From positions 1 to 49,530 of the IMG/VR virus record IMGVR_UViG_3300015050_000527: a DNA stretch of 49,530 nucleotides; one strand, given 5' to 3'. Source of the DNA: a virus. Taxonomy: Duplodnaviria > Caudoviricetes. The notes beneath the pieces are model-generated. The model was not told the origin of the DNA. It was given only the letters and a program-made list of their open reading frames with translations, and did not search any database. The translations under genes were made by a program, and so were the position numbers. This document shows positions 6,579-35,080 of this stretch, in pieces (within the stretch, counting starts at the first letter, position 1; each line of letters opens with the position of its first letter).

Positions 6579-6757
6579 TTTACAAACCAACACAACTCAT
6601 GTATACTATGTTCTGTTGAGTGAGAAATCATTCAACGTCAGAGGAAGAAGAAAGACTGACTAAAACAGTCAAGAATTCAGAAACCTCTTGACAAGATGCG
6701 GTGGATGATGTATACTGTATCTGTTGAGTGAGAAATCGCTCCAAGTTCTTTAAAAAT
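6579..6757 (+). promoter_or_regulatory. tandem sigma70 promoters P1/P2 plus boxA-like antiterminator driving the tRNA operon
   Basis: TTTACA-17-TATACT (6579-6607); TTGACA-17-TATACT (6688-6716); both followed by TCTGTTGAGTGAGAAATC; GTTCTTTAAAAA at 6745-6756. Confidence 0.75.
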
Positions 6758-6800
6758 TTGACGATCAGCATATGTTTCCCAGGGTTCTGAACTCTGGGTG

Positions 6801-7302
6801 CCATATTGAAATGCATTACAGGTTGGGTAGCATTCGCGGTGCTACTATTTGGGATGAAAAGCCGGCATGACTGCAGGGTAATAATCTAAGATACGCAGTG
6901 TGTTTCAATATGGTGTAAGCCAGTAAGAGCAGCGGTTTCTTTTCTAAGTTGAATCCAGTATGAGCAGCACGGTAAGCTAGCTAAATCCGTGGGCAGGCAA
7001 TAGTATCAAAATGTAACTTAGATGACAGCCAGGAAAGTCTGGCACCATATTGAAGCGCATTCTAAAACATAAAGATTTAGGATCATCAAGGGGTACTTTC
7101 AGCACATCCCCGAGTGTGCTTCAATATGGTGTAGCTTAATTCAAGAGCGGCGGGCACACAGGTTCAGACGTCTACCCGTGAAGTGCAGGTGCAAGTCCTG
7201 CCGCCATATTGAAACACATTGCTTGCCCGACCGTAAAAGTCGTGGTAAACTACTAGAGAAACAGGTTCGAATCCTGGGGACTGGCAGTGTGTTTCAATAT
7301 GG
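6801..7302 (+). repeat. alternating inverted-repeat array (CCATATTGAARCACATT / AGTGTGYTTCAATATGG) x3
   Basis: Arms at 6801-6817, 6897-6913, 7045-7062, 7112-7129, 7204-7222, 7284-7302. Confidence 0.9.
7125..7209 (+). ncRNA. tRNA-like element with 20-nt anticodon loop
   Basis: Acceptor TATGGTG/CGCCATA, D arm GCTT/GAGC, stem GCGGG/CCCGT, T arm GCAGG-TGCAAGT-CCTGC. Confidence 0.65.
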
Positions 7303-7315
7303 TAAAAGAAATGAT

Positions 7316-7402
7316 GGGTGTCGAGAAGCATTGGTGACTTCAGCAGACTGTAAATCTGTAGCCCCTAGGGGCAACGGGGTTCGAATCCCTGGACACCCAC
7401 CA
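7316..7402 (+). tRNA. tRNA-Tyr(GTA)
   Basis: Cloverleaf, loop CTGTAAA, long V arm, CCA. Confidence 0.9.
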
Positions 7403-7409
7403 AAAATTG

Positions 7410-7484
7410 ACCCGCGTAACTCAGTGGTAGAGTAGCGTCTTGATAAGGCGAAAGTCATTGGTTCAATCCCAATCGTGGGTACCA
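7410..7484 (+). tRNA. tRNA-Ile(GAT)
   Basis: Cloverleaf, loop TTGATAA, CCA. Confidence 0.88.
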
Positions 7485-7497
7485 CAAAAAGTTATTC

Positions 7498-7572
7498 GGG
7501 AGTATGGCGCAGTGGTAGCGCAGCGGACTTTTAATCCGTTGGTCGAGGGTTCGAATCCCTCTGCTCCTACCA
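7498..7572 (+). tRNA. tRNA-Lys(TTT)
   Basis: Cloverleaf, loop CTTTTAA, CCA. Confidence 0.92.
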
Positions 7573-7583
7573 AAAAAGAATTT

Positions 7584-7660
7584 GCGACTGTAACTCAGTG
7601 GATTAGAGTAACCGGCTTCTACCCGGTATGTCGGGGGTTCGAATCCCTCCAGTCGCACCA
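7584..7660 (+). tRNA. tRNA-Arg(TCT)
   Basis: Cloverleaf, loop CTTCTAC, CCA. Confidence 0.92.
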
Positions 7661-7664
7661 ATAG

Positions 7665-7694
7665 TTGACATCCAGTGTGATCCGTGTTATCATG
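7665..7694 (+). promoter_or_regulatory. internal sigma70 promoter in tRNA cluster
   Basis: TTGACA-17bp-TATCAT. Confidence 0.55.
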
Positions 7695-7768
7695 TGATCT
7701 CACTAAGAAAGGCACGATGAAGATCGCCAGATCCGAGTGCACCGGGGTTGTGGAATCTGCCTCGTAAT

Positions 7769-7843
7769 GCTTGATTAGCTCAGTGGTAGAGCGTCTCCTT
7801 TACACGGAGAGGGTCCGCGGTTCGATACCGTGATCAAGCACCA
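7769..7843 (+). tRNA. tRNA-Val(TAC)
   Basis: Cloverleaf, loop TTTACAC, CCA. Confidence 0.92.
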
Positions 7844-8041
7844 TTTAGTCTATTGTTAAGGAAAATTCCTGTGTTCACCAGGACAGTGAACTGTCAATGT
7901 CTCGGATGGTACCTCACAAGAGATATACAGTTTTGAATTGACGAATCGTGGATTTAGCGGTCCTAGCAATAAGCAATTCATAATAAAAGCAAACGATAGT
8001 AGGGCGATTGCTATCAATAACTTGACAATAGACTAAATGGT
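7840..8041 (+). ncRNA. putative ~200-nt structured ncRNA closed by a 21-bp stalk
   Basis: ACCATTTAGTCTATTGTTAAG pairs with CTTGACAATAGACTAAATGGT; no ORF inside. Confidence 0.55.
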
Positions 8042-8049
8042 AATAATTT

Positions 8050-8124
8050 GGCTTCAAAGTGTTCATGGACGCACACATGCCTGTCACGCATGTAGAAGGG
8101 GATCGTTACCCCTTGAAGCCGCCA
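8050..8124 (+). tRNA. tRNA-Asp(GTC), atypical T loop ATCGTTA
   Basis: GGCTTCA/TGAAGCC acceptor, loop CTGTCAC, G73, CCA. Confidence 0.82.
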
Positions 8125-8143
8125 CATATATAATAGCATAGTA

Positions 8144-8228
8144 GCCCCCTTGGCGGAATTGGTAAACGCACCAGATTTAGGTTCTGGCATCGAAAGGTTT
8201 GAGAGTTCGAGTCTCTTGGGGGGCACCA
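8144..8228 (+). tRNA. tRNA-Leu(TAG)
   Basis: Cloverleaf, loop TTTAGGT, long V arm, CCA. Confidence 0.9.
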
Positions 8229-8306
8229 TATTGAAGCACATTAGAACATGCCCCTAGTAGCAGTAGTGAATCAAGGGCAGAATGTTGAGTGTGCTTCAAT
8301 ATGGTG
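8224..8306 (+). repeat. fourth copy of the inverted-repeat stalk, fused to tRNA-Leu CCA
   Basis: CACCATATTGAAGCACATT ... GAGTGTGCTTCAATATGGTG. Confidence 0.88.
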
Positions 8307-8322
8307 AATAAATTAACACAAA

Positions 8323-8399
<77 letters not shown>

Positions 8400-8545
8400 A
8401 CATATATAAATGTATAACGACGATTCCTCCCACCAAAATGCACAGCATCGCTTTATGCTGTGGTAGGAATGCCTCTCAGTCCTAGGTCTGATGCATCTCA
8501 AACTACAACTAGAGTTCTAGCAAAAGAACATAGCACCAATTCAAT

Positions 8546-8578
8546 TCCTCAATAGCTCAGTCGGTAGAGCAACGCACT
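8546..8578 (+). pseudogene. 5' half of a tRNA (probably Asn) truncated at the anticodon loop
   Basis: TCCTCAATAGCTCAGTCGGTAGAGCAACGCACT followed by unrelated A-rich sequence; no matching 3' half. Confidence 0.75.
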
Positions 8579-8593
8579 CAGAAAACAAAAACA

Positions 8594-8601
8594 TATAAAT
8601 A
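8594..8601 (+). promoter_or_regulatory. T4-type late promoter
   Basis: TATAAATA upstream of endonuclease ORF with AGGAGG RBS. Confidence 0.7.
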
Positions 8602-8620
8602 ATAGCAGGAGGAAAACAAA

Positions 8621-9244
8621 ATGCTGTTATGTATATTCTGTAGTAAATCTTGTAAGAATGCAAACTCACTCAGAAACCATGAGAGATTGTGTCATTCTAA
8701 TCCAAATCGACAGATAAGTTCATTCTCCAAACAAGAGGTCAAAGATAAATTAAAGCCAACTAACGGAGCAATAAAGGCAAAACAGGAAGGGCGAGAATTT
8801 GTTTTCCCTGAAATCACCAGAAAAGCATTATCTGATGCTACATTAAATCGTACCGCTGAATGGCATAAAGAAAATGGTAAGAAAATCTCCAAAACAATAC
8901 AAGAAAAAGTATTAACTGGTGAGTGGCATACTTCTTTAGCTAAACATATGCACTATGAATATAATGGAGTTGATCTGCACGGAAAATGGGAAGTTGAATA
9001 CGCAAAATATCTGGACAGAAATGGGATAAAATGGGCGAGAAATAAAGACTCATTCGCATATACGTATGATGGAAAAGAGCGACGTTATACTCCAGATTTT
9101 TATCTCCCAGAAACTGATGAGTATGTAGAAATAAAAGGATATAAGACTGATAAAGACGAGACTAAGTGGGAACAATTTCCCAAACATCGAAAATTATTAG
9201 TGCTTATGAAACAAGAACTAGGATCTTTAGGAATAAAAACTTGA
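8621..9244 (+). mobile_element. free-standing homing endonuclease gene (Zn-finger + PD-(D/E)XK domain)
   Basis: CIFC...HERLC N-terminus; YTPDFYLP...YVEIKG catalytic motif; AT-rich; inserted in tRNA cluster. Confidence 0.8.
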
Positions 9245-9250
9245 TATTGC

Positions 9251-9325
9251 TGACCGATATCGTTCTAGGTGAGGCGAGTCTGACTGTTAATCAGAAATAG
9301 GTTGGTTCGAATCCAACTCGGTCAG
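9251..9325 (+). tRNA. divergent tRNA-Asn(GTT), no encoded CCA
   Basis: TGACCGA/TCGGTCA acceptor, TCTGA-CTGTTAA-TCAGA, GTTGG-TTCGAAT-CCAAC, G73. Confidence 0.8.
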
Positions 9326-9362
9326 CAATATCAAGACCAATATATAAAGAAAAGGAAAAATT

Positions 9363-9536
9363 ATGCAAAAGAAATGGTACATGTCAAAAACGGTTTGGGT
9401 CAACGCACTAGCTCTAGGAGCAGTGCTGCTACAAACTCAGTTTGGTTTTATTTTGACGCCTGAATTGCAGGCGATGGCATTGACTTTTATCAACCTTGGT
9501 CTACGTACAGTAACTAAGGAAGAAATCGTCTGGTAA
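9363..9536 (+). CDS. small 2-TM protein, holin-like (not in ORF track)
   Basis: MQKKWYMSKTVWVNALALGAVLLQTQFGFILTPELQAMALTFINLGLRTVTKEEIVW; AAGGA RBS. Confidence 0.65.
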   Translation: MQKKWYMSKTVWVNALALGAVLLQTQFGFILTPELQAMALTFINLGLRTVTKEEIVW

Positions 9537-9543
9537 AAAGTTT

Positions 9544-9619
9544 TGCGGGTAAGGTCTGGTCACTACTTCGGTCTCATAAGCCAGGAGCATCGCTGGTTCG
9601 AATCCAGCACCCGCAACCA
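9544..9619 (+). tRNA. tRNA-Met(CAT), initiator-like, atypical D and anticodon arms
   Basis: TGCGGGT/ACCCGCA acceptor, loop CTCATAA, canonical T arm, CCA; weak D stem and bulged anticodon stem. Confidence 0.65.
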
Positions 9620-9624
9620 ATATT

Positions 9625-9698
9625 GCCCCCATAGTTAAGTGGTATAACAGTTGCCTTGTAAGCATCAATTCCTAGTTCGATTCCAGGTGGGGGCACCA
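9625..9698 (+). tRNA. tRNA-Thr(TGT)
   Basis: Cloverleaf, loop CTTGTAA, CCA. Confidence 0.85.
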
Positions 9699-9758
9699 GT
9701 ATAAAATCGCGATGACACTCCGCGTACAATAGGATAAGTAGTGTGTCAACGAATTCAT

Positions 9759-9834
9759 GGGGGATTAGCACAGTTGGGAGTGCGCCTGCTTTGCAAGCAG
9801 GAGGTCGTCGGTTCGATCCCGTCATCCTCCACCA
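9759..9834 (+). tRNA. tRNA-Ala(TGC)
   Basis: G3.U70 identity pair, loop TTTGCAA, CCA. Confidence 0.92.
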
Positions 9835-9853
9835 AATATTATATGGAGTAAAA

Positions 9854-10039
9854 ATGAATGATGGCGGTAAAGGTTCAAAACCAAGACCATTCAGTATAAG
9901 TCAAGAAGAGTGGTCAAACAGATGGAATGCTATTTTCGCAAGGGACTTGCCTGATGAATTATCGAAAGTATTACCTGAAGCAAATTCTTCGATTGCTGAA
10001 AGCGAGTCTTCTGATGACAAAGGGAATGATTCTGAATAA
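9854..10039 (+). CDS. small phage protein (GGKGSKPRP family)
   Basis: GGAG RBS, MNDGGKGSKPRPFSISQEEWSNRWNAIF. Confidence 0.65.
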   Translation: MNDGGKGSKPRPFSISQEEWSNRWNAIFARDLPDELSKVLPEANSSIAESESSDDKGNDSE

Positions 10040-10050
10040 GAGAATTTAGT

Positions 10051-10124
10051 GTCTCGCTAGTGTAATGGCAGCATACGGGTCTCCAAAACCCTTGGTGGGA
10101 GTTCGAATCTCTCGCGGGATGCCA
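10051..10124 (+). tRNA. tRNA-Trp(CCA)
   Basis: Cloverleaf, loop CTCCAAA, G73, CCA. Confidence 0.88.
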
Positions 10125-10125
10125 A

Positions 10126-10133
10126 TATAAATA
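10126..10133 (+). promoter_or_regulatory. T4-type late promoter
   Basis: TATAAATA upstream of 10158 ORF. Confidence 0.65.
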
Positions 10134-10157
10134 ATCTTATTTGCATTGGAGATCATT

Positions 10158-10613
10158 ATGGCAACACAAACACTGATCATAGCGAACACTTCGCCCACAG
10201 TTGAAATCTACAGAGTAACTGATGGTGCAAACTCTTACATCATCGCACAAGATGGTTACTCAACAAACTCACCCAACACTGTATCGATTCAGATAGACTA
10301 TTCTCCTTTCCTTGAGAGAATAGCAACATCGCTTGAAACAATTGCAGTAGAAGTGTCAACTGCAAACTCATCTTATACTTTAGGTGAAAGTTTAGTTGGC
10401 ATGTGGTTAGCTATCAATAATCTTAGATTAGATGTTGGTGATCTTGTGCTTGAAGCTAACTCATCAACGCAGCATCTAAGTACAATAGCAAGCAACTTTG
10501 AAGTCGAAAGAGCGGTGAACGTATCCGAGATGAAATACGCAGATTACAATGATGACAACTTCGATAGACTAACTGTTGTTTCAAATGAAGTTCAAAATCC
10601 AACACAATTTTAA
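10158..10613 (+). CDS. late-expressed hypothetical (possibly virion) protein
   Basis: GGAG RBS, late promoter, S/T/N-rich acidic composition. Confidence 0.65.
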   Translation: MATQTLIIANTSPTVEIYRVTDGANSYIIAQDGYSTNSPNTVSIQIDYSPFLERIATSLETIAVEVSTANSSYTLGESLVGMWLAINNLRLDVGDLVLEANSSTQHLSTIASNFEVERAVNVSEMKYADYNDDNFDRLTVVSNEVQNPTQF

Positions 10614-10620
10614 ACACATT

Positions 10621-10694
10621 GCGGGGTTGGTATAGTGGTTGTGCTCTAGCCTTCCAAGCTAGTGAGACCGGTTCGATCCCGGTACCCCGCTCCA
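10621..10694 (+). tRNA. tRNA-Gly(TCC)
   Basis: GCGGGGT start, loop CTTCCAA, U73, CCA. Confidence 0.9.
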
Positions 10695-10724
10695 AAACCT
10701 AAGAGGTGTATCGTGTACTATAGA

Positions 10725-11207
10725 ATGAACATTGATGCGGTAAAAGATTTTATTATGAGTCAATCTCCAGAGACAAAGGTCTACATCGGTGGAGACTCTG
10801 AACGTATTCTTGTTAATGATGTATGGTACGCAGATTACACCCTTGCAGTAGTTGTTCACATTGATGGAAATCATGGATGTAAAATCTTCGGTGACGTTCA
10901 GCGTGAAAAAGACTACGAAAAGAACAAGAACAGACCTCGCATGAGACTGATGACTGAAGTCTATAAGATTTCAGAACTCTATCTTCGGCTTGCGGATGTT
11001 CTTGAAGATAGAGAAGTTGAAATTCATCTAGACATTAATCCCGATGAACGATACGGAAGCTCTTGCGTGGTGCAAGAAGCTGTTGGCTATATCAGAGGCA
11101 TGTGTAATGTGATCCCCATGGTTAAGCCAAAAGCGTTTGCAGCATCGTATTGTGCGGATAGACTAAAAGAAATCATGAACATGCAGCAACAAAAGATTGC
11201 TGCGTAA
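10725..11207 (+). CDS. RNase H-like YkuK family protein
   Basis: VYIGGDS, RLMTEV, EIHLDIN and KPKAFAASYCAD motifs. Confidence 0.8.
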   Translation: MNIDAVKDFIMSQSPETKVYIGGDSERILVNDVWYADYTLAVVVHIDGNHGCKIFGDVQREKDYEKNKNRPRMRLMTEVYKISELYLRLADVLEDREVEIHLDINPDERYGSSCVVQEAVGYIRGMCNVIPMVKPKAFAASYCADRLKEIMNMQQQKIAA

Positions 11208-11210
11208 AAC

Positions 11211-11239
11211 TTGACAGAGATTCGGTTCTCTGATACAAT
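11211..11239 (+). promoter_or_regulatory. sigma70 promoter
   Basis: TTGACA-17bp-TACAAT. Confidence 0.65.
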
Positions 11240-11284
11240 GAATTTCATTGATTGAATGTGATTTTTAACTATAAAGGTACTACT

Positions 11285-11722
11285 ATGAAGAAGATTGCTA
11301 TTGTTATTTCCATGATGTTTGCGGGTGCAGTAAGTGCCGCTGAAGTCTCCACTTCTTATGTGCATGACTATGAAACTGGTAAGAATGGTGCGCGAATTGA
11401 ACTGCCCGTCGGCAGTGTGTACGGCATCAAGCCCGTTCTCGGTGTCTCATACGTTGATGAGTCTTACACTCGCTACAGCGCAGGTGCAGATTATCAAGTT
11501 GTAAAGCTGGGTCCAGTCGCACTCTCAGTCGCGGGATCTGCTGTCTTTCAAGACTCACGCACAGGCAGTGATGGTTTTGGATTGACTGCTGGTGTCAAGG
11601 TATCAATGCCAGTGACTAAATCTGTTGATGTTGTTAGTCGAGTTGATCGATTCTTCGGTCAAAATCGAATCGCCGGCTTTGATGGGAACGTTGTCTCCGT
11701 CGGTCTAGCAGTGAAGTTCTGA
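11285..11722 (+). CDS. small outer-membrane beta-barrel protein
   Basis: Signal peptide ending AVSA; amphipathic beta strands; C-terminal VGLAVKF beta-signal. Confidence 0.75.
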   Translation: MKKIAIVISMMFAGAVSAAEVSTSYVHDYETGKNGARIELPVGSVYGIKPVLGVSYVDESYTRYSAGADYQVVKLGPVALSVAGSAVFQDSRTGSDGFGLTAGVKVSMPVTKSVDVVSRVDRFFGQNRIAGFDGNVVSVGLAVKF

Positions 11723-11760
11723 TTTAAATAAAAAAAACACCGCGGTGTTTTTTATACACA

Positions 11761-11847
11761 GGAAACGTGGCCGAGTGGTTTATGGCTCTAGTCTTGAAAA
11801 CTAGCGAAGGTTAACGCCTTCCGTGAGTTCGAATCTCACCGTTTCCG
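11761..11847 (+). tRNA. tRNA-Ser(TGA)
   Basis: Loop CTTGAAA, long V arm, G73; followed by CCG not CCA. Confidence 0.9.
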
Positions 11848-11862
11848 CCGCTCCGGGTTTTT

Positions 11863-11951
11863 AGTGAGTTGGATGAGTGGTTTAAATCGACACCCTGCTA
11901 AGGTGTTGTTCGTATAAACGCGAACCGTGGGTTCGAATCCCACACTCACTG
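11863..11951 (+). tRNA. tRNA-Ser(GCT)
   Basis: Loop CTGCTAA, long V arm, G73; followed by CCG. Confidence 0.9.
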
Positions 11952-11957
11952 CCGTTA

Positions 11958-11986
11958 TTGACAAGATATGATGTTTGTGATATAAT
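11958..11986 (+). promoter_or_regulatory. consensus sigma70 promoter
   Basis: TTGACA-17bp-TATAAT with extended TG. Confidence 0.75.
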
Positions 11987-11996
11987 GAACAAGTGC

Positions 11997-12073
11997 GCCC
12001 TGATGACGGAACTGGTATACGTGCGGGACTCAAAATCCCGATTCTGTGGGTTCGACTCCCACTTAGGGCACCA
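11997..12073 (+). tRNA. tRNA-Leu(CAA) with short variable loop
   Basis: Loop CTCAAAA, 5-nt variable region ATTCT, A73, CCA. Confidence 0.85.
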
Positions 12074-12082
12074 AAAGATTTC

Positions 12083-12161
12083 GGGCCGGTAGCTCATGTT
12101 TGGTTAGAGCAGCGTACTCATAATGCGTTGGTAGTGTGTTCGACTCACACCCGGCCTACCA
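12083..12161 (+). tRNA. tRNA(CAT), Ile2 or elongator Met
   Basis: Loop CTCATAA, GGGCCGG/CCGGCCT acceptor, CCA. Confidence 0.85.
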
Positions 12162-12181
12162 GTTATTGATATGTAAACTGT

Positions 12182-12273
12182 GGGAGCGAGACTTGGTAGT
12201 CAGGGAGTCCTTATAAGACTTTTAGCGCCAGATTAGCGTTCTTGAGAGGGTTCGATCCCCTCCGCTCCTACCA
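12182..12273 (+). tRNA. atypical tRNA(TAT), nominally Ile(UAU), with long V arm and 4-nt D loop
   Basis: GGGAGCG/CGCTCCT, GACT-TGGT-AGTC, loop CTTATAA, AGCGC/GCGTT extra arm, canonical T arm, ACCA. Confidence 0.75.
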
Positions 12274-12282
12274 ACCGAATAT

Positions 12283-12367
12283 GCTCCGATGGCGTAATAG
12301 GTAGCCGCAACGGACTTAAAATTCGTTATCGAAAGGTGTGCCGGTTCGATTCCGGCTCGGAGCACCA
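12283..12367 (+). tRNA. tRNA-Leu(TAA)
   Basis: Loop CTTAAAA, long V arm, CCA. Confidence 0.9.
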
Positions 12368-12373
12368 ATATAT

Positions 12374-12448
12374 GCACGGGTGGCAGAGTGGTCCAATGCA
12401 CAGGATTGCAAATCCCGATAACCGTGAGTTCGAATCTCACCCCGTGTT
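12374..12448 (+). tRNA. tRNA-Cys(GCA)
   Basis: Loop TTGCAAA, U73; followed by CCC. Confidence 0.82.
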
Positions 12449-12587
12449 CCCTGTTATGTTCTTGTGATAAGACGCTGTTGCACAAAGACAACACACACAA
12501 AATAACAGTTGACTCTATTGCTTTTATATGATAAAATTGATGTGTTGACAATTGTAATCAACACAACACAAATCAAAAGGAAATTGA

Positions 12588-15673: not shown

Positions 15674-15883
15674 ATGATGAACGAACGAATTCAACAAATG
15701 ATCTTCAGTCTCAATGAAAAAGTTGGAGTTCATTGGACTAATGAGGACAAGATAAAATTCGCCGAACTGATTGTTCGAGAAGCTGCTCAGGTCGTTGATA
15801 TTTGGTCAGATGAGGAACCTTGTTCCGAGGGCTATGACAAGTTCACGGTTTACAAGTTGAAGCAACATTTCGGAGTTGAATGA
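15674..15883 (+). CDS. HFGVE-family paralog 1
   Basis: MNERI...KFAELIVRE...KQHFGVE. Confidence 0.75.
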   Translation: MMNERIQQMIFSLNEKVGVHWTNEDKIKFAELIVREAAQVVDIWSDEEPCSEGYDKFTVYKLKQHFGVE

Positions 15884-16200
15884 TGGTACACTTTACAAAC
15901 ACAGACAATCCTATTGATTTTCCTAAGTCAACAATGACTATTAGAATTCGAGAACTTGTGCTAGAGGCTGGTTTCGTACACTACGGTGAAGATCAGGGTT
16001 TCTATAACATTCCAGTGCCTGCATTCAACGGTCGTATGGAAAAGTTCGCCGAGTTGATTGTACGGGAATGTATTGACAAGATTGAAACATATCGTATCCC
16101 AGTCGGAAATAGTGCCGCAGGTGAAATGGCATGTGAATGGACTTACTCTGCGTTACATGAGATTCGTGATGATATCAAAGAAACTTTTGGAGTTGAATAA
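15880..16200 (+). CDS. HFGVE-family paralog 2
   Basis: RIRELVLEAG...KFAELIVREC...IKETFGVE. Confidence 0.75.
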   Translation: MMVHFTNTDNPIDFPKSTMTIRIRELVLEAGFVHYGEDQGFYNIPVPAFNGRMEKFAELIVRECIDKIETYRIPVGNSAAGEMACEWTYSALHEIRDDIKETFGVE

Positions 16201-16576
16201 TGGGTTGGAATTTTGAAGTAAATGTCTGGGATGGTCCCGTTGATGGTAAGTTTAACTGGCTGCAAATTTATGCAGGTAATAGTATAATCCGAACAGTGTA
16301 CAACCTGTGTTGGGCAAAGCGCAACGGATGGAAGTGCATCAAACTGGAATGGAGACCCTGATGATTCGCTGGTATTGGCATAAGTTCATGCAATTTGTTG
16401 GGTATAGGGAAGTGTGGTATTTTCCTTCCAGACATATGCCAATGAGTGACTTTTGGCTCTGGGAATATAGACCTGATCTGCCCCGAGGAACCTATAAAGC
16501 ATGATTGCCATTTTTCACTTTACTTTTATTCAGATTAGTAGTATAATAACTTATTGAAACGTGAAAGATAAACAAC

Positions 16577-16774
16577 ATGAAGCAATATACAGTTAACTAT
16601 GGCGCAGTACCCCACCAACAACGGGCATTCCGCAACTACGCTGATGCCTCGGCATTTATCAAACAGCAATTGGATTTGGGAATTGCTGTTCGATCAGTCT
16701 CCAAGGAAGAATGCGAATATGCTGATTCCAGAGATCAACTGATCAGGTCAGTAGACATTATTGGAGATCGGTAA
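16577..16774 (+). CDS. hypothetical protein
   Basis: Follows TTTACT...TATAAT promoter-like sequence. Confidence 0.55.
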   Translation: MKQYTVNYGAVPHQQRAFRNYADASAFIKQQLDLGIAVRSVSKEECEYADSRDQLIRSVDIIGDR

Positions 16775-16916
16775 TGACTTACACCGTAGTTATCCTGCAG
16801 GACGACGAGACTGCTCGTTTGCCCTGCGCTACACTGGAAGAAGCGCATGAAGTTCGGCGCAGTTTCATCAACTACGGCAAGTATCAAGAAGTCCGTATTG
16901 AGATAGAGGAGCAGGC

Positions 16917-17138
16917 ATGAACGACTGTATTGAAAAATTGCGAGAGATGTGTAAGATCCAAGGTTACGATGGTAACTGGAACTATGATCCATATATGATG
17001 GGACTTTACAATGGACTAGAATTTGCTGTGTCTATTGTTGAGGACAGAGATCCGGTGTTCAAGAGTCAACCAGAACAGTGGCTAAAGGATATTCCAACCA
17101 CGCACATCTTAAGCAAAGAAGCAGAGGTTGAGGGTTGA
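16917..17138 (+). CDS. conserved phage hypothetical protein
   Basis: Q..DGNWNYDPYM.GLYNGLE motif; GGAG RBS. Confidence 0.65.
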   Translation: MNDCIEKLREMCKIQGYDGNWNYDPYMMGLYNGLEFAVSIVEDRDPVFKSQPEQWLKDIPTTHILSKEAEVEG

Positions 17139-17141
17139 ATA

Positions 17142-17558
17142 ATGACTGATCGAGAAATTATGCAACAGGCTCTGGAAGCATTAGAGTCTTGTGATCCGGG
17201 TGACTACACTACCGGGCATGTGATTTACCCGAGCTATCACGAGGATGCAGTTGAAGCTGCCATCACCGCCCTCGAGACAGCACTGGCAGAGCCGGTGCAG
17301 GAGCCGGTGGCGTGGATGACCGTTCGACTGGGTGCGCCTATTCAAACCACAGCGCGAGAGGATGTCGCCAACGAGTGGGCTAAATGGGGCGAGCAGCCCC
17401 TCTACACCGCCCCACCCCAGCGCAAGCCGCTGACGGAAGAACAGTGTGTAAGTATCTTCCGCGAGGCGTTCTTAGCCAGTCCAGATCCACTAGTTAAAGA
17501 CAACATGACTATTGCTTTTGCCCGCGCCATCGAGCGGGCACATGGGATCGTATCATGA
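17142..17558 (+). CDS. GC-rich hypothetical protein of proteobacterial temperate-phage type
   Basis: QALEALE...QEPVAW...PLYTAPPQRKPLT...FARAIERAHGI motifs; visibly higher GC. Confidence 0.7.
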   Translation: MTDREIMQQALEALESCDPGDYTTGHVIYPSYHEDAVEAAITALETALAEPVQEPVAWMTVRLGAPIQTTAREDVANEWAKWGEQPLYTAPPQRKPLTEEQCVSIFREAFLASPDPLVKDNMTIAFARAIERAHGIVS

Positions 17559-17737
17559 TCCAGAATGAGCACAAAAATGATGTTGTCACCGCAGCCATTC
17601 AGGGATTGATTCAGGGTGGTTGGGATAAACTTTACGCAGAATCTCTTTACATCTTGCTTGAACGAGTGTATAATTGTGGATACAATGAAGCACGACGCAA
17701 CATGGAAGAAAATCCACGAGATTGGGGAGCATACTGA
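17555..17737 (+). CDS. hypothetical protein
   Basis: ATGA-coupled ORF. Confidence 0.5.
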   Translation: MIQNEHKNDVVTAAIQGLIQGGWDKLYAESLYILLERVYNCGYNEARRNMEENPRDWGAY

Positions 17738-17851
17738 TGTCTGATGAAGAACTAGTCAACACACTTCGTATTGCGAGCAAGAGTATGCGCGACGAAAATA
17801 TAGCACTGGCAATGTTATTGATGATGGCTGCTGAACGTATCGAGGAGTTGA

Positions 17852-18178
17852 ATGATGAAACTGAGTGAACTGAAACAATTTGTTGATCGACAACTTGAGT
17901 TCAATGGTCGCGAAGATCCCGAAGTTGTAATTCGCATCAAAATGCCATATACCACTGTGGGCGCATCACCTACGGTCAAGGTTAAGAATGTTCAAATGGG
18001 GTTTGACTGGGACTCAGGCAAGTTTATGCTGTACCCAGAAGAAGACCTTACTCCCAGTGATCGTGACTTTGCCAAACAGATGACGGAGATGCAGACACGA
18101 GCAGGAAACGCAGACTACGAAAATCGCAATCTCAAGGCAGAAATTCGCCGACTGCAAAAGAAGTTGAATACACCATGA
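17852..18178 (+). CDS. hypothetical protein
   Basis: GGAG RBS; GFDWDSGKF motif; C-terminal coiled coil. Confidence 0.6.
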   Translation: MMKLSELKQFVDRQLEFNGREDPEVVIRIKMPYTTVGASPTVKVKNVQMGFDWDSGKFMLYPEEDLTPSDRDFAKQMTEMQTRAGNADYENRNLKAEIRRLQKKLNTP

Positions 18179-18286
18179 AAGAAAAAGAATGAAACCAGCT
18201 GATAAATTTTTGTGTTTTAGTTTGATATTCTTCACCGCTTCGTTGACCTATGCTATATGCTCTGTGTATTTGTAAGGAATTAAAGA

Positions 18287-18508
18287 ATGAACGAACGAAT
18301 TCGAGAACTTGCTAAACAGGCTGACATTTACTCTGACAAACACGCTGAGTCCAGAGATTATGTGGTGTTGCGTGACCAGTATTTCGCCGAGTTGATTGTT
18401 CGAGAATGTGCTGGCATTTACGACAAGATTGACAACGGCAATTCGCATATGGGTACAGATGATTATCTGGAAGCATTACATAGAACATTCTTCGGAGTTA
18501 AAGAATGA
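18287..18508 (+). CDS. HFGVE-family paralog 3
   Basis: MNERIRELA...FAELIVRECA...FFGVKE. Confidence 0.75.
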   Translation: MNERIRELAKQADIYSDKHAESRDYVVLRDQYFAELIVRECAGIYDKIDNGNSHMGTDDYLEALHRTFFGVKE

Positions 18509-18654
18509 AATATGTTGTAAAACTGGCGGATTCAAATGATGAAACCTGCTCTGAATATGTTCAATCATTTGAATCAAGAAAAAACGCACAAGATTATGCC
18601 GACACTTTGAATGAACGGGGTGACGGTTATTACTATGTTGAATTAAAAGATTAA
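18505..18654 (+). CDS. 49-aa hypothetical protein (not in ORF track)
   Basis: ATG overlapping paralog stop with GGAG RBS. Confidence 0.5.
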   Translation: MKYVVKLADSNDETCSEYVQSFESRKNAQDYADTLNERGDGYYYVELKD

Positions 18655-18679
18655 ACAACATTTCGGAGTTGAAGAATGA
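18650..18679 (+). pseudogene. orphan 3' remnant of an HFGVE-family gene
   Basis: ATTAAACAACATTTCGGAGTTGAAGAATGA = IKQHFGVEE* out of frame with the upstream ORF. Confidence 0.7.
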
Positions 18680-18828
18680 GTAACCTATGGTTCAATGTAC
18701 GTTTCGGCACTAGACACTTTCAGTTCTCTAGAGACTGGGAGATTAGCTTTAAGGTGAATCCATATTTTGTCGAGAACCCTCCGCAAAAATGGTTTGAAGT
18801 TTACTGCTTGTTTGGAAAGCACTTTTGA
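18676..18828 (+). CDS. 50-aa hypothetical protein (not in ORF track)
   Basis: MSNLWFNVRFGTRHFQ..., uses RBS inside the remnant. Confidence 0.55.
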   Translation: MSNLWFNVRFGTRHFQFSRDWEISFKVNPYFVENPPQKWFEVYCLFGKHF

Positions 18829-19021
18829 TTATGAAAGATAAAGTTGAATTTGTTCACTACTCGGATGTATTAGGTGCTCTGATTATGAAGGCTACTAACT
18901 GGAAAGAAGCAGCGAGTGAACTATACAATGAAGGGTTCGCTAATTCCGGCAAGTGCAAAGTAGTCAAGCGCACTTATAAGTGGATCAGCGACGAGCCACA
19001 GATTATTGATACGGACTACAA

Positions 19022-19249
19022 ATGAATGACCGAATCAGAGAACTTGCCGCTTCAATTGGTATCAGTGTTGAGTATTTGGCGAATACGAAGCAAATTGAGT
19101 TGCTTGATAAGTTCGCAGAGTTGATTGTTCGGGAATGCTTGAATGAACTTTGCGAGCAGATGGATAAACATAATGTCGATCTTTCCAATCTCCCATCCTG
19201 GTATAAAGCATTAGCAAAAACTGAAGAACATTTTGGAGTTGAAGAATGA
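19022..19249 (+). CDS. HFGVE-family paralog 4
   Basis: MNDRIRELA...KFAELIVREC...EHFGVEE. Confidence 0.75.
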   Translation: MNDRIRELAASIGISVEYLANTKQIELLDKFAELIVRECLNELCEQMDKHNVDLSNLPSWYKALAKTEEHFGVEE

Positions 19250-19530
19250 AGATTGTTATCAACACATGTTACGGCGGATTCTCTCTGTCTGACGCAGCAA
19301 TCACAATGTACTGCGAAGCGAAAAATCTTAACACGAAAGAATTTTGCGAGTGGGAAGTTCCTCGCAATGACGCTACACTCATTTCTATCGTAGAGAAACT
19401 TGGCGATAGCGTCAACACAGGATATTCTAAGTTGAGGATTGTTGAAATTCCAGAAGATGTCAATTGGACAGTTGAACAGTACGATGGAAACGAATGGGTA
19501 GCCGAGGTTCACCGTACTTGGAGATATTGA
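19246..19530 (+). CDS. conserved phage hypothetical protein
   Basis: KIVINTCYGGFSLS...LRIVEIP...EQYDGNEWVAE motif. Confidence 0.75.
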   Translation: MKIVINTCYGGFSLSDAAITMYCEAKNLNTKEFCEWEVPRNDATLISIVEKLGDSVNTGYSKLRIVEIPEDVNWTVEQYDGNEWVAEVHRTWRY

Positions 19531-19752
19531 ATGAACTCACATGTACTAGACCTTGCTAAGAAAGCTGGGCTCAAAAAAGATCATGGATCTGACAGAGAGT
19601 ACATTGGTGACTTCGACTGGCGTAAGTTTGCCGATTTGATTGTTAGCGAGTGTGCTAAAATCGGCGAGTTAAAAGAACAGGGTCATGAAGAATATGACAC
19701 AGATGTGTCAGTTGGATGGTACATGAAGCAACATTTCGGAGTTGAAGAATGA
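19531..19752 (+). CDS. HFGVE-family paralog 5
   Basis: LAKKAG...KFADLIVSECA...KQHFGVEE. Confidence 0.75.
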   Translation: MNSHVLDLAKKAGLKKDHGSDREYIGDFDWRKFADLIVSECAKIGELKEQGHEEYDTDVSVGWYMKQHFGVEE

Positions 19753-20009
19753 TTACCTTTTATCCCAGAGATATCGGATTGTGGAGGAAATCATTCAACT
19801 TTGAAATGCCTGGTGTCCATGGTCCTAACAAGATATTTTATGATAGAGATGAATTAATCGGGTTCTGTAAACAACACGGTGTTAGATTAGATGATCCAGA
19901 AAATCCATTTGAAATTTTGAACGATTTTGCAAATCCGGTATTTGGTGATGGAACTTTTGTTGTAAAACAATGGACCGTTATTGGATGGTTAAAGGATAAT
20001 TTAGTATGA
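19749..20009 (+). CDS. hypothetical protein
   Basis: ATGA-coupled to paralog 5. Confidence 0.6.
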   Translation: MITFYPRDIGLWRKSFNFEMPGVHGPNKIFYDRDELIGFCKQHGVRLDDPENPFEILNDFANPVFGDGTFVVKQWTVIGWLKDNLV

Positions 20010-20278
20010 ACGAACGAATTAAAGAACTTGCTGTTGAGGCTGGAATCATTTCAGTAGAATACAACGGATTTGACCCCACTGGTCTTACTAAAGCACAAAG
20101 AAAGTTCGCAGAGTTGATTGTTCGGAAGTGTGCCGATATTTGTCTCAATGAGAATGTATCTAATCTTGATTTGGATGTTATTCGTATGTCTGGCAAATTT
20201 ACTTTACAGGATCTTGCTACTAAATCGTGTGGTGAGAATTTGACTAAACGGATTAAAGAACATTTCGGAGTTGACTAA
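20006..20278 (+). CDS. HFGVE-family paralog 6
   Basis: MNERIKELAVEAG...KFAELIVRKCA...IKEHFGVD. Confidence 0.75.
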   Translation: MNERIKELAVEAGIISVEYNGFDPTGLTKAQRKFAELIVRKCADICLNENVSNLDLDVIRMSGKFTLQDLATKSCGENLTKRIKEHFGVD

Positions 20279-20520
20279 TGAGTGAAGAAGTTAAGATGAG
20301 GACGTTTAAAGTCGTTTGGAACAGCGAAGGAAACGTACCTCCTATTCGATCTGCAAATGGTCGTGCTCCTGCCGAAGTTATCGTCCGCGCTGAAACAATC
20401 GCAAAAGCTCAAGATAAGTTTTTAGCGTGGCTGAGAAAACTTCCACTCTACGAACATATGTGGCGACTGGATTTTCAATTCACTGAAGTTGCATATATTG
20501 AACCACTAGTTCTGGAGTGA
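20278..20520 (+). CDS. hypothetical protein
   Basis: TAATG-coupled to paralog 6. Confidence 0.6.
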   Translation: MSEEVKMRTFKVVWNSEGNVPPIRSANGRAPAEVIVRAETIAKAQDKFLAWLRKLPLYEHMWRLDFQFTEVAYIEPLVLE

Positions 20521-34782: not shown

Positions 34783-35080
34783 GATCGTATGAAGTAAATC
34801 AAAAAGTGTTCTGGACGCGGGTTCGATTCCCGCCAGCTCCACCAAAAGCATATTCTTTGAGGTCTTGATCGTTACCTGCGTAGCAAAAACGGTGACAGAG
34901 TATGCTTTTGATGGGGCTGACCTGGTTTCGACAGGGCAACAAGTAGAGGAATGGACGATCCAGTAGGCGATGACTGTAAATCAAGCAAACCACGTAAATG
35001 CAAACGACGAAAAGTTCGCATTAGCCGCCTAAACTCGGCTTAGGGTTTCGGTGGGTTTCCTCGTAACAGAATAACCCACC
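34783..35080 (+). ncRNA. ssrA: circularly permuted (two-piece) tmRNA, tag ANDEKFALAA
   Basis: GACGCGGGTTCGATTCCCGCCAGCTCCACCA (ends 34844) precedes GGGGCTGACCTGGTTTCGAC (starts 34913); tag ORF 35000-35032. Confidence 0.9.

Follow-up and report, generated by a model that had tools for sequence, protein, structure and literature searches.

Conserved stems in a T4-like phage tRNA array as likely host RNase III sites that would release an exchangeable set of small RNAs of putative function

The array and its leader

The window analysed here, a whole viral record of 49,530 bases with an estimated genome completeness of 27%, is a fragment of a T4-like phage with genes for gp32, gp59, gp33, the baseplate hub and RNase H. 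It carries 21 tRNA genes within 7316-12450 and, on the plus strand at 34783..35032, a permuted (two-piece) tmRNA gene of betaproteobacterial type, for which the permuted and betaproteobacterial models score best. Because the tmRNA is of this type, the phage host would be a betaproteobacterium.

Four F and four R arms of 17 nt each were located in the window, all eight with 0-1 mismatch to a degenerate pattern. With up to three mismatches allowed there were 11 matches in total, against a shuffle mean of 1.32 and a shuffle maximum of 5. It was suggested in an earlier, sequence-only reading that such arms alternate over 6801-7302 and recur near 8224-8306, and the eight matches confirm this. The enclosed segments, given there as 45-130 nt long, are indeed unrelated to each other, but the F-to-R inserts measure 79, 51, 65 and 45 nt, and lengths of 131 and 74 nt belong to R-to-F intervals.

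The arms, inserts and intervals described below are on the plus strand. F1 (6801..6817; predicted cut 6807/6808), the 79-nt insert 1 (6818..6896) and R1 (6897..6913; predicted cut 6908/6909) form the first unit, whose insert has no family member and one partial relative (locus L299). The R1-to-F2 interval (6909..7051) is predicted to be a product of a second class, with a 6-bp stem closing it. F2 (7045..7061; predicted cut 7051/7052) and R2 (7113..7129; predicted cut 7124/7125) enclose the 51-nt insert 2 (7062..7112), which belongs to a family of 4 with its other copies behind tRNA-Ala and tRNA-Lys. The predicted R2 cut falls at base 1 of a tRNA-shaped RNA (7125..7210) with an acceptor stem (7125-7131/7202-7208), a D arm and a T arm and no terminal CCA. 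In this cloverleaf (7125-7208) a 20-nt loop replaces the anticodon loop, and its forced fold has -22.8 kcal/mol against a minimum of -24.0. Relatives at loci L074 and L076 have the same fold with other acceptor letters, and the 20-nt loop is conserved.

F3 (7204..7220; predicted cut 7210/7211) and R3 (7286..7302; predicted cut 7297/7298) frame the 65-nt insert 3 (7221..7285), a three-hairpin junction from a family of 5 found elsewhere behind tRNA-Leu, -Glu and -Gln. The T-arm that had been noticed in one insert lies here, at 7262-7276. Three consecutive units (F1 to R3) thus stand in the window with no tRNA between them. A tRNA-Tyr gene starts at 7316 on the plus strand, 18 nt past the predicted R3 cut. 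The fourth unit, F4 (8226..8242; predicted cut 8232/8233), the 45-nt insert 4 (8243..8287; family of 10, with covarying inner helices) and R4 (8288..8304; predicted cut 8299/8300), stands alone, as do many units in other phages. The first three bases of F4 are the CCA of tRNA-Leu(TAG) (8144..8228, plus strand), on which the predicted cut would leave a 4-nt trailer. Of the earlier proposal that every F begins with a CCA, a real one at tRNA-Leu, the latter part holds, and in the window F4 is the only arm that follows a real tRNA.

Upstream of F1, also on the plus strand, lie two sites matching the sigma70-type promoter consensus, at 6579..6607 (10/12) and, 109 nt downstream, at 6688..6716 (11/12). 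They are followed by a small hairpin (6726..6741), in what would be the boxB position of an rRNA-operon-like leader, and by a perfect match (6745..6755) to the BoxA consensus GYTCTTTAANA as given in PMC5725501. Neither strand of the window has another BoxA-like match. Among the matches listed, the motif occurs at 74 of 269 loci in the sense direction and at 3 in antisense; it often stands some 100 nt ahead of an F. The order of tandem promoter-like sites, hairpin and BoxA before the first stalk is that of an rRNA-operon leader with tandem promoters and boxB-boxA antitermination. However, such a leader drives rRNA, whereas the phage leader precedes an array of tRNAs and small RNAs, and Nus binding is putative here.

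A family of stems in phage tRNA arrays

Viral contigs were scanned three times and prokaryote genomes once, which yielded at least 381 sequences including the window. With pairing at 15 or more of 17 positions required, these hold at least 504 different F-R units, whose first occurrences are spread over 270 of the sequences. These units lie in phage tRNA arrays, with F-to-R inserts of 23-193 nt in at least 281 families. Family counts refer to loci, some of them overlapping, and all units form one family, so that the counts are not independent. The stem measures 19 bp, because pairing extends to positions -1 and 18, in 79% and 83% of the 504 units among the matches listed.

Double changes occur at many stem positions in the 504 units listed. 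When the pairing filter was lifted, 208 changes in F outside position 8 broke a pair, and R restored 178 of them; with that position included, it restored 238 of 390, again among the matches listed. Compensatory changes of this kind, spread over at least 504 units, support the view that the arm variants reflect selection on RNA structure. The units are also tied to tRNAs: in the listed matches, 468 of 504 lie on the same locus strand as the tRNAs, 224 start on the CCA of a called tRNA, and in 96 the final R bases are the start of the next tRNA. The upstream tRNAs listed are enriched in Lys-UUU, Glu-UUC, Leu-UAG and Gln-UUG (Lys inflated by the third search pattern, and kinship uncontrolled), and none of the 81 Asp or 79 Ser-GCU tRNAs listed is an upstream neighbour, kinship being uncontrolled here too.

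Among cultured phages no similar DNA was found, nor were there stalks in the tRNA regions of DLP6, X1 and Astolliot. A search of 185,579 prokaryote genomes, with a pattern that spanned 25-55-nt inserts only, gave a single match, on a 1.5-kb MAG contig with a tRNA array. A CRISPR-like repeat-spacer array was considered and rejected: direct repeats and even spacers are absent, the arms are inverted, and the inserts range over 23-193 nt.

Inverted arms around variable interiors, one of them found in many contexts, could also be the terminal inverted repeats of DNA-level mobile elements of the MITE, REPIN or integron-cassette kind. We consider this highly improbable. Wobbles favour the tRNA-sense strand (644 G-U against 149 A-C, 110 at position 8), a bias of which much is inherited consensus. 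Copies in tmRNA genes carry the inner 10-11 bp of the arms only, and no transposase or integrase was detected in the 54 ORFs scanned of the 182 listed for this 27% complete genome. The rarity of the units in prokaryote genomes, with the one match on a short tRNA-array contig, speaks against mobile elements as well.

Alternating arms allow each R to pair with the next F as well as with its own, from which two mutually exclusive folds had been proposed. Such pairing is possible in the sequence, most cross pairings are close in energy, and an unconstrained fold of 6725-7315 mixes both registers. It is not, however, the selected register. In 132 F-R-F triples among the matches listed, the preceding F is the better partner of R in 53 and the following F in 5, with 74 ties (P 3e-11), and position-11 pairs of the window arms show the same preference for the own partner. 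In 106 listed R-to-F intervals, pairing drops to background past 6 bp. As the arms covary with their own partners and R-to-F pairing ends at 6 bp, the switch is unsupported; many units are moreover solitary, F4-R4 among them. As to the kindred proposal that the inserts are antisense guides or circles, a search with seven window segments in this partial genome gave antisense matches no better than those of shuffles, and the comparison with rRNA was negative too. Taken as one alternative, a switch, guides or circles would be very hard to credit.

Predicted cleavage and the tmRNA spacer

For E. coli RNase III, Pertzev and Nicholson (PMC1540722) describe a distal box of U-A/U-G, a proximal box of G-C, W, A-U, W and an 11-bp helix. 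A G-C pair next to the cut slows the enzyme 14-fold, blocking catalysis and not binding (PMC1540722), and natural E. coli sites deviate from the consensus too (PMC5371410). We set the box spacing from the numbering in PMC1540722 and the T7 R1.1 sequence and scored every register with a 2-nt overhang (PMC3867540), by rules that are those of E. coli and not of the phage host. A cut before F8 was the best register in 498 of the 504 listed units, with a mean of 7.8 of 10 reachable rules against at most 4.55 elsewhere. In pair-order shuffles the four commonest stems reached P 0.002-0.036, whereas the fifth was not significant (P 0.28-0.30).

In this register at least 11 bp extend beyond the cut, as F8-F18 pair, with position 18 paired in 83% of the 504 units among the matches listed. 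The distal box has U-A in 484 and U-G in 387 of the 504 listed units, and both in all four window units. Positions 2 and 3 of the upper proximal box (A-U/U-A and A-U) agree in 503 and 466 of 504 listed units; F10, the most invariant pair (503 of 504 listed), is the box position described as most sensitive in PMC1540722. At the other two positions of this box, the canonical G-C of position 1 is present in just 88 and an A-U/U-A pair at position 4 in just 83 of the 504 listed. A second, lower proximal box lies at the offset expected for a 2-nt overhang and agrees at its four positions in 498, 495, 498 and 432 of 504 listed units, so that both proximal boxes stand at a 2-nt offset. Cleavage in this register would leave a 4-nt trailer on 221 of 234 nearby tRNAs and a 3-nt leader on 82 of 172, among the matches listed.

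Beside the upper cut, 264 of the 504 listed units, including all four in the window, have a G-C pair. Given that in E. coli such a pair prevents catalysis and not binding (PMC1540722), and that the lower box, on which the R-strand cut would depend, is almost without deviation (agreement in 432-498 of 504 listed), RNase III or another dsRNA-binding protein might bind the stalk and nick the R strand only, or nothing, the stem serving to clamp the insert or mask the CCA. This is an unlikely alternative: the tmRNA spacers of Cupriavidus share that G-C yet need removal at the CCA, and at this position 127 of the listed units are mismatched (A-C) and 65 have A-U.

Cleavage by RNase III accords with the layout of known sites. 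The phage T7 early site R1.1 has the same arrangement, and its upper stem aligns with the distal box, the A-U-rich proximal box and the 11-bp upper helix; the 23S stalk of Cupriavidus contains a 10-bp look-alike. In contrast to the T7 and rRNA sites, the phage stem is repeated, anchored on a tRNA CCA, combined with interchangeable inserts of 23-193 nt and often has G-C beside the upper cut, and its cleavage is a prediction. The 19-bp stem is thus likely to be cut by host RNase III, to judge from the sequence. One processing signal shared by all units had been postulated, and the conservation of stem and register across at least 504 units agrees with it. To speak of a new processing system was too strong, because the signal resembles a known host signal reused.

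The enzyme had been thought RNase III-like or a phage nuclease. The fit to RNase III rules in one register favours the first, but a phage-encoded RNase III domain was found in 0 of 36 larger stalk-search records (two of them without a counted unit) and in 0 of 13 near-complete ones, by a search that detected its control in 8 of 14 genomes. A candidate nuclease of the phage itself is the DUF458 RNase H-like protein (PF04308) encoded at 10662-11207. PF04308 occurs in 21 of the 36 records and 10 of the 13 near-complete ones, mostly a few kb from the array, as would be expected of an enzyme that recognises the stalk. It is, however, also present in or beside the tRNA regions of the three stalk-less cultured phages and missing from 3 of 13 near-complete records, and half of the stalk is present in bacterial tmRNA genes. 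We regard a phage nuclease of this sort as very unlikely.

The link to tmRNA is direct. As had been noticed, the arm core also forms the stem of the tmRNA intervening segment of the window (34845..34912, plus strand), in which an inner half-stalk (34845-34855/34898-34908) follows directly after the CCA and agrees with 6/6 rules. The inner half of the phage stem is nearly identical to the spacer stem of the two-piece tmRNA of Cupriavidus (10/10 and 9/10 for one unit), which in the predicted cut register starts exactly after the CCA. Three Cupriavidus plasmid tmRNA genes have the F8-17 arm directly after the CCA, an R-like arm at the end and an 8-nt loop. Two further rows of a published alignment, CP000089.1 and CP001281.2, are presumably betaproteobacterial. 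In that alignment (PMC11915505) the seed row CP000092.1 has the F8-17 arm directly after the CCA, and these two rows and the Rfam beta consensus have related stems, with a one-base shift where the A of the CCA is not encoded. Of 13 distinct permuted-tmRNA spacers (12 viral ones and that of the window), 9 score 3-6/6 from CCA+1 and 4 score 0-2.

Betaproteobacterial permuted tmRNAs (Rfam RF01850, RF04321; Nawrocki et al., 2025, PMC11915505) thus have the same or nearly the same inner half-stalk at CCA+1. In the bacterial spacers compared, the loops are of at most 8 nt, whereas phage spacers hold inserts common with tRNA arrays, and the array stalks have an extra outer stem of 7-8 bp. The tmRNA insert of the window is shared by 7 array units of other phages among the matches listed, and array inserts have matches in two further tmRNA spacers of phages. 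A host origin of the half-stalk is likely on these comparisons, though the plasmid tmRNA copies could be mobile themselves. The available text of PMC11915505 ascribes spacer removal to "tRNA processing enzymes" and does not name RNase III; in that of PMC9004378 phage two-piece tmRNA is described without such spacers.

We therefore hold it to be moderately probable that the arms form a conserved 19-bp stem cut by host RNase III, by which an rRNA-operon-like transcript would be split into tRNA precursors and swappable small RNAs. One long transcript, likely begun at the rRNA-operon-like leader, would be carried through the array by Nus antitermination. RNase III would cut F between bases 7 and 8 and R between bases 12 and 13. 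The upstream tRNA would keep a 4-nt trailer, and a tRNA that follows directly would keep 3 nt of leader, left to RNase P. The inserts would be freed as RNAs closed by the stem, with 3' overhangs of 2 nt. The cut halves would re-close the R-to-F intervals, one as the anticodon-less cloverleaf, so that the two pairings would act in succession and not as a switch. If this is right, RNase III is predicted to make the 3' CCA end of the acceptor piece in bacteria as well, in the two-piece tmRNA of betaproteobacteria.

Exchangeable inserts and their putative role

The inserts move between sites. Among the matches listed, the 505 inserts group into 281 families, of which 174 have a single member, and 24 of the 53 families with at least three members follow two or more tRNA isotypes. 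Inserts 2, 3 and 4 of the window have 3, 4 and 9 relatives in other contexts in the listed matches. For one 29-nt insert, 8 of the 12 array copies listed and 3 of 4 tmRNA copies share the same sequence, while the arms differ; the pattern used required the half-stalk, and the counts show sharing and not frequency. Such shuffling would proceed by recombination at the repeated arms.

Folding of the inserts is slightly better than that of shuffles (median z -0.27, 7% below -2). The inner helices of insert 4 covary: among 8 of the 10 family members, with relatedness uncontrolled, both partners differ at three inner pairs. The T-loop alone is a strong shared motif; it was found in 29 of 281 families against 0.8 expected among the matches listed and usually lies 3-8 nt before R. 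The comparison with Rfam suggested by the sequence-only reading left the units without a family, be it YrlA, GOLLD, CRISPR repeats or ribozymes. No family matched any window unit or, GOLLD at locus L288 excepted, 40 fully listed related loci, and a wider scan of related loci gave none for any unit among the matches listed (150 of 212 rows). Bacterial Y RNAs (YrlA, RF02553) and GOLLD (RF02032) are likewise non-coding RNAs that are tRNA-like or linked to tRNA arrays. However, the GOLLD match lies at that one related locus, YrlA scores, far below cut-off, only on ordinary tRNAs, and neither matches a window unit.

Mimicry of rRNA was also considered, several inserts resembling pieces of 16S and 23S by eye, and was rejected after three negative tests: 1 of 141 beat all shuffles, k-mer z reached at most 2.0, and 2 of 53 profiles matched against about 1.3 expected. 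Similarity to rRNA was higher in sense than in antisense (P 0.0009) but not above shuffles, and is therefore read as composition. A motif of insert 4 resembles E. coli 23S near position 241 and is absent from the rRNAs of three other species.

It could be argued that the stalk serves tRNA and tmRNA maturation only and that the inserts are passengers, either filler or remains of decayed tRNAs, which recombination shuffles. The weak folding signal and the many singleton families agree with this, as do the bacterial spacers, which function with an 8-nt loop, and the cultured T4-like phages, which mature their arrays without such stalks. We consider it quite unlikely, as inserts can exceed the arms in conservation (the 29-nt insert), inner helices covary (relatedness being uncontrolled), and the window has its run of units with no tRNA to mature between them.

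The overall reading that we prefer is that of stalks cut by host RNase III, which likely release an exchangeable library of small RNAs with a putative function. Phage tRNA arrays counter tRNA-cleaving defences. From this role, together with the tRNA likeness, diversity and mobility of the inserts, we tentatively suggest by analogy that the released RNAs may be structure decoys, many of them tRNA-like, that occupy host defence proteins attacking tRNA or other RNA; this is the weakest step of the argument. A bolder version, which we regard as rather doubtful, is that an uncultured T4-like clade has a pseudo-rRNA operon whose RNase III stalks, and the discarded tmRNA spacer with them, are slots for a recombining decoy library of hundreds, in which every insert would neutralise another RNA-targeting defence or toxin of the host, as an RNA-only counter-defence. 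Decoy inserts would make the arrays a modular counter-defence system built of RNA; with passenger inserts, nothing more than a processing signal would remain.

The processing logic is of a known kind, and what is new is the framed, exchangeable RNA library. The small RNAs of the T4 tRNA cluster (species 1 and 2, RnaC/RnaD), stable non-tRNA RNAs that are co-transcribed with the phage tRNAs, would be a comparable case. T4 has two fixed small RNAs and is not known to have a framed exchangeable library. If correct, our reading would add several hundred uncatalogued phage small RNAs with exactly predicted ends, which could be cloned and tested directly, and would account for some of what large phage tRNA arrays contain besides tRNAs. 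In the accessible literature our searches found no description of a stalk-framed exchangeable RNA family. Thousands of RNAs have been predicted from IMG/VR (Fremin et al., 2023, PMC10690425), among which pieces of the stalk family may be listed unnamed; the arm motif is absent from six supplementary files of that study. One RNA run (0.05 word share) holds related units as assembled contigs of relatives only, from which ends and expression are not readable. One metatranscriptome contig covers 6929-7021 of the window with 9 differences.

tRNA-like RNAs and conserved stretches in the array

Many of the intervals between the R arm of one stalk and the F arm of the next are recurring tRNA-like RNAs, with examples in the compared loci L002, L041, L079, L289, L317 and L377 among others; in these RNAs the anticodon arm is altered or the acceptor stem is long. 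In the window, a called tRNA-Asn (9243-9336) lacks a CCA, and inverted repeats on either side of it lengthen its acceptor stem to about 15 bp.

Two stretches of the array are also conserved in other loci, and neither found a match in the Rfam search. The first (7851-8030), a non-tRNA sequence flanked by tRNA-Val and tRNA-Asp, is 70% alike in L065 across 185 nt, and parts of it recur in L212, L005 and L184. It is a candidate structured RNA. The second, an element of 85-90 nt located 3' of tRNA-Pro (8432-8520), recurs with about 80-85% similarity in L258, L072, L030, L214 and L078.

Similar helices in Cupriavidus

In the megaplasmids of several Cupriavidus, a permuted tmRNA gene adjoins an H-NS gene; that of C. 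pinatubonensis plasmid p2 lies at 370-420 of locus L509. The intervening spacer of the Cupriavidus plasmid gene is a minimal hairpin resembling RNase III sites. The 23S rRNA processing stalk of C. metallidurans (L136, 2590-2632 and 5505-5530) contains a 10-bp helix that, in this one species, differs from the phage half-stalk, the inner part of the stalk stem, at about one position per strand.

Protein genes and a promoter-like site

A tRNA 5' half with its D arm (8543-8580) ends before the anticodon, and downstream of it lies a zinc-finger endonuclease ORF (phrog_15137; 8621-9244). Together, they look like a homing-endonuclease insertion into the array. Also within the array is a DUF458/YkuK-type RNase H-like gene (10662-11207), and genes of this type are found close to tRNA genes in many phages, including cultured ones. 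The short ORFs at 15758-20285, a repeated family with starts and ends in common (repeat families D2, D3, D6 and D8), are probably paralogous small early genes. An additional, strong promoter-like site internal to the array (7665-7693) matches the consensus at 11 of 12 positions and has an extended -10.
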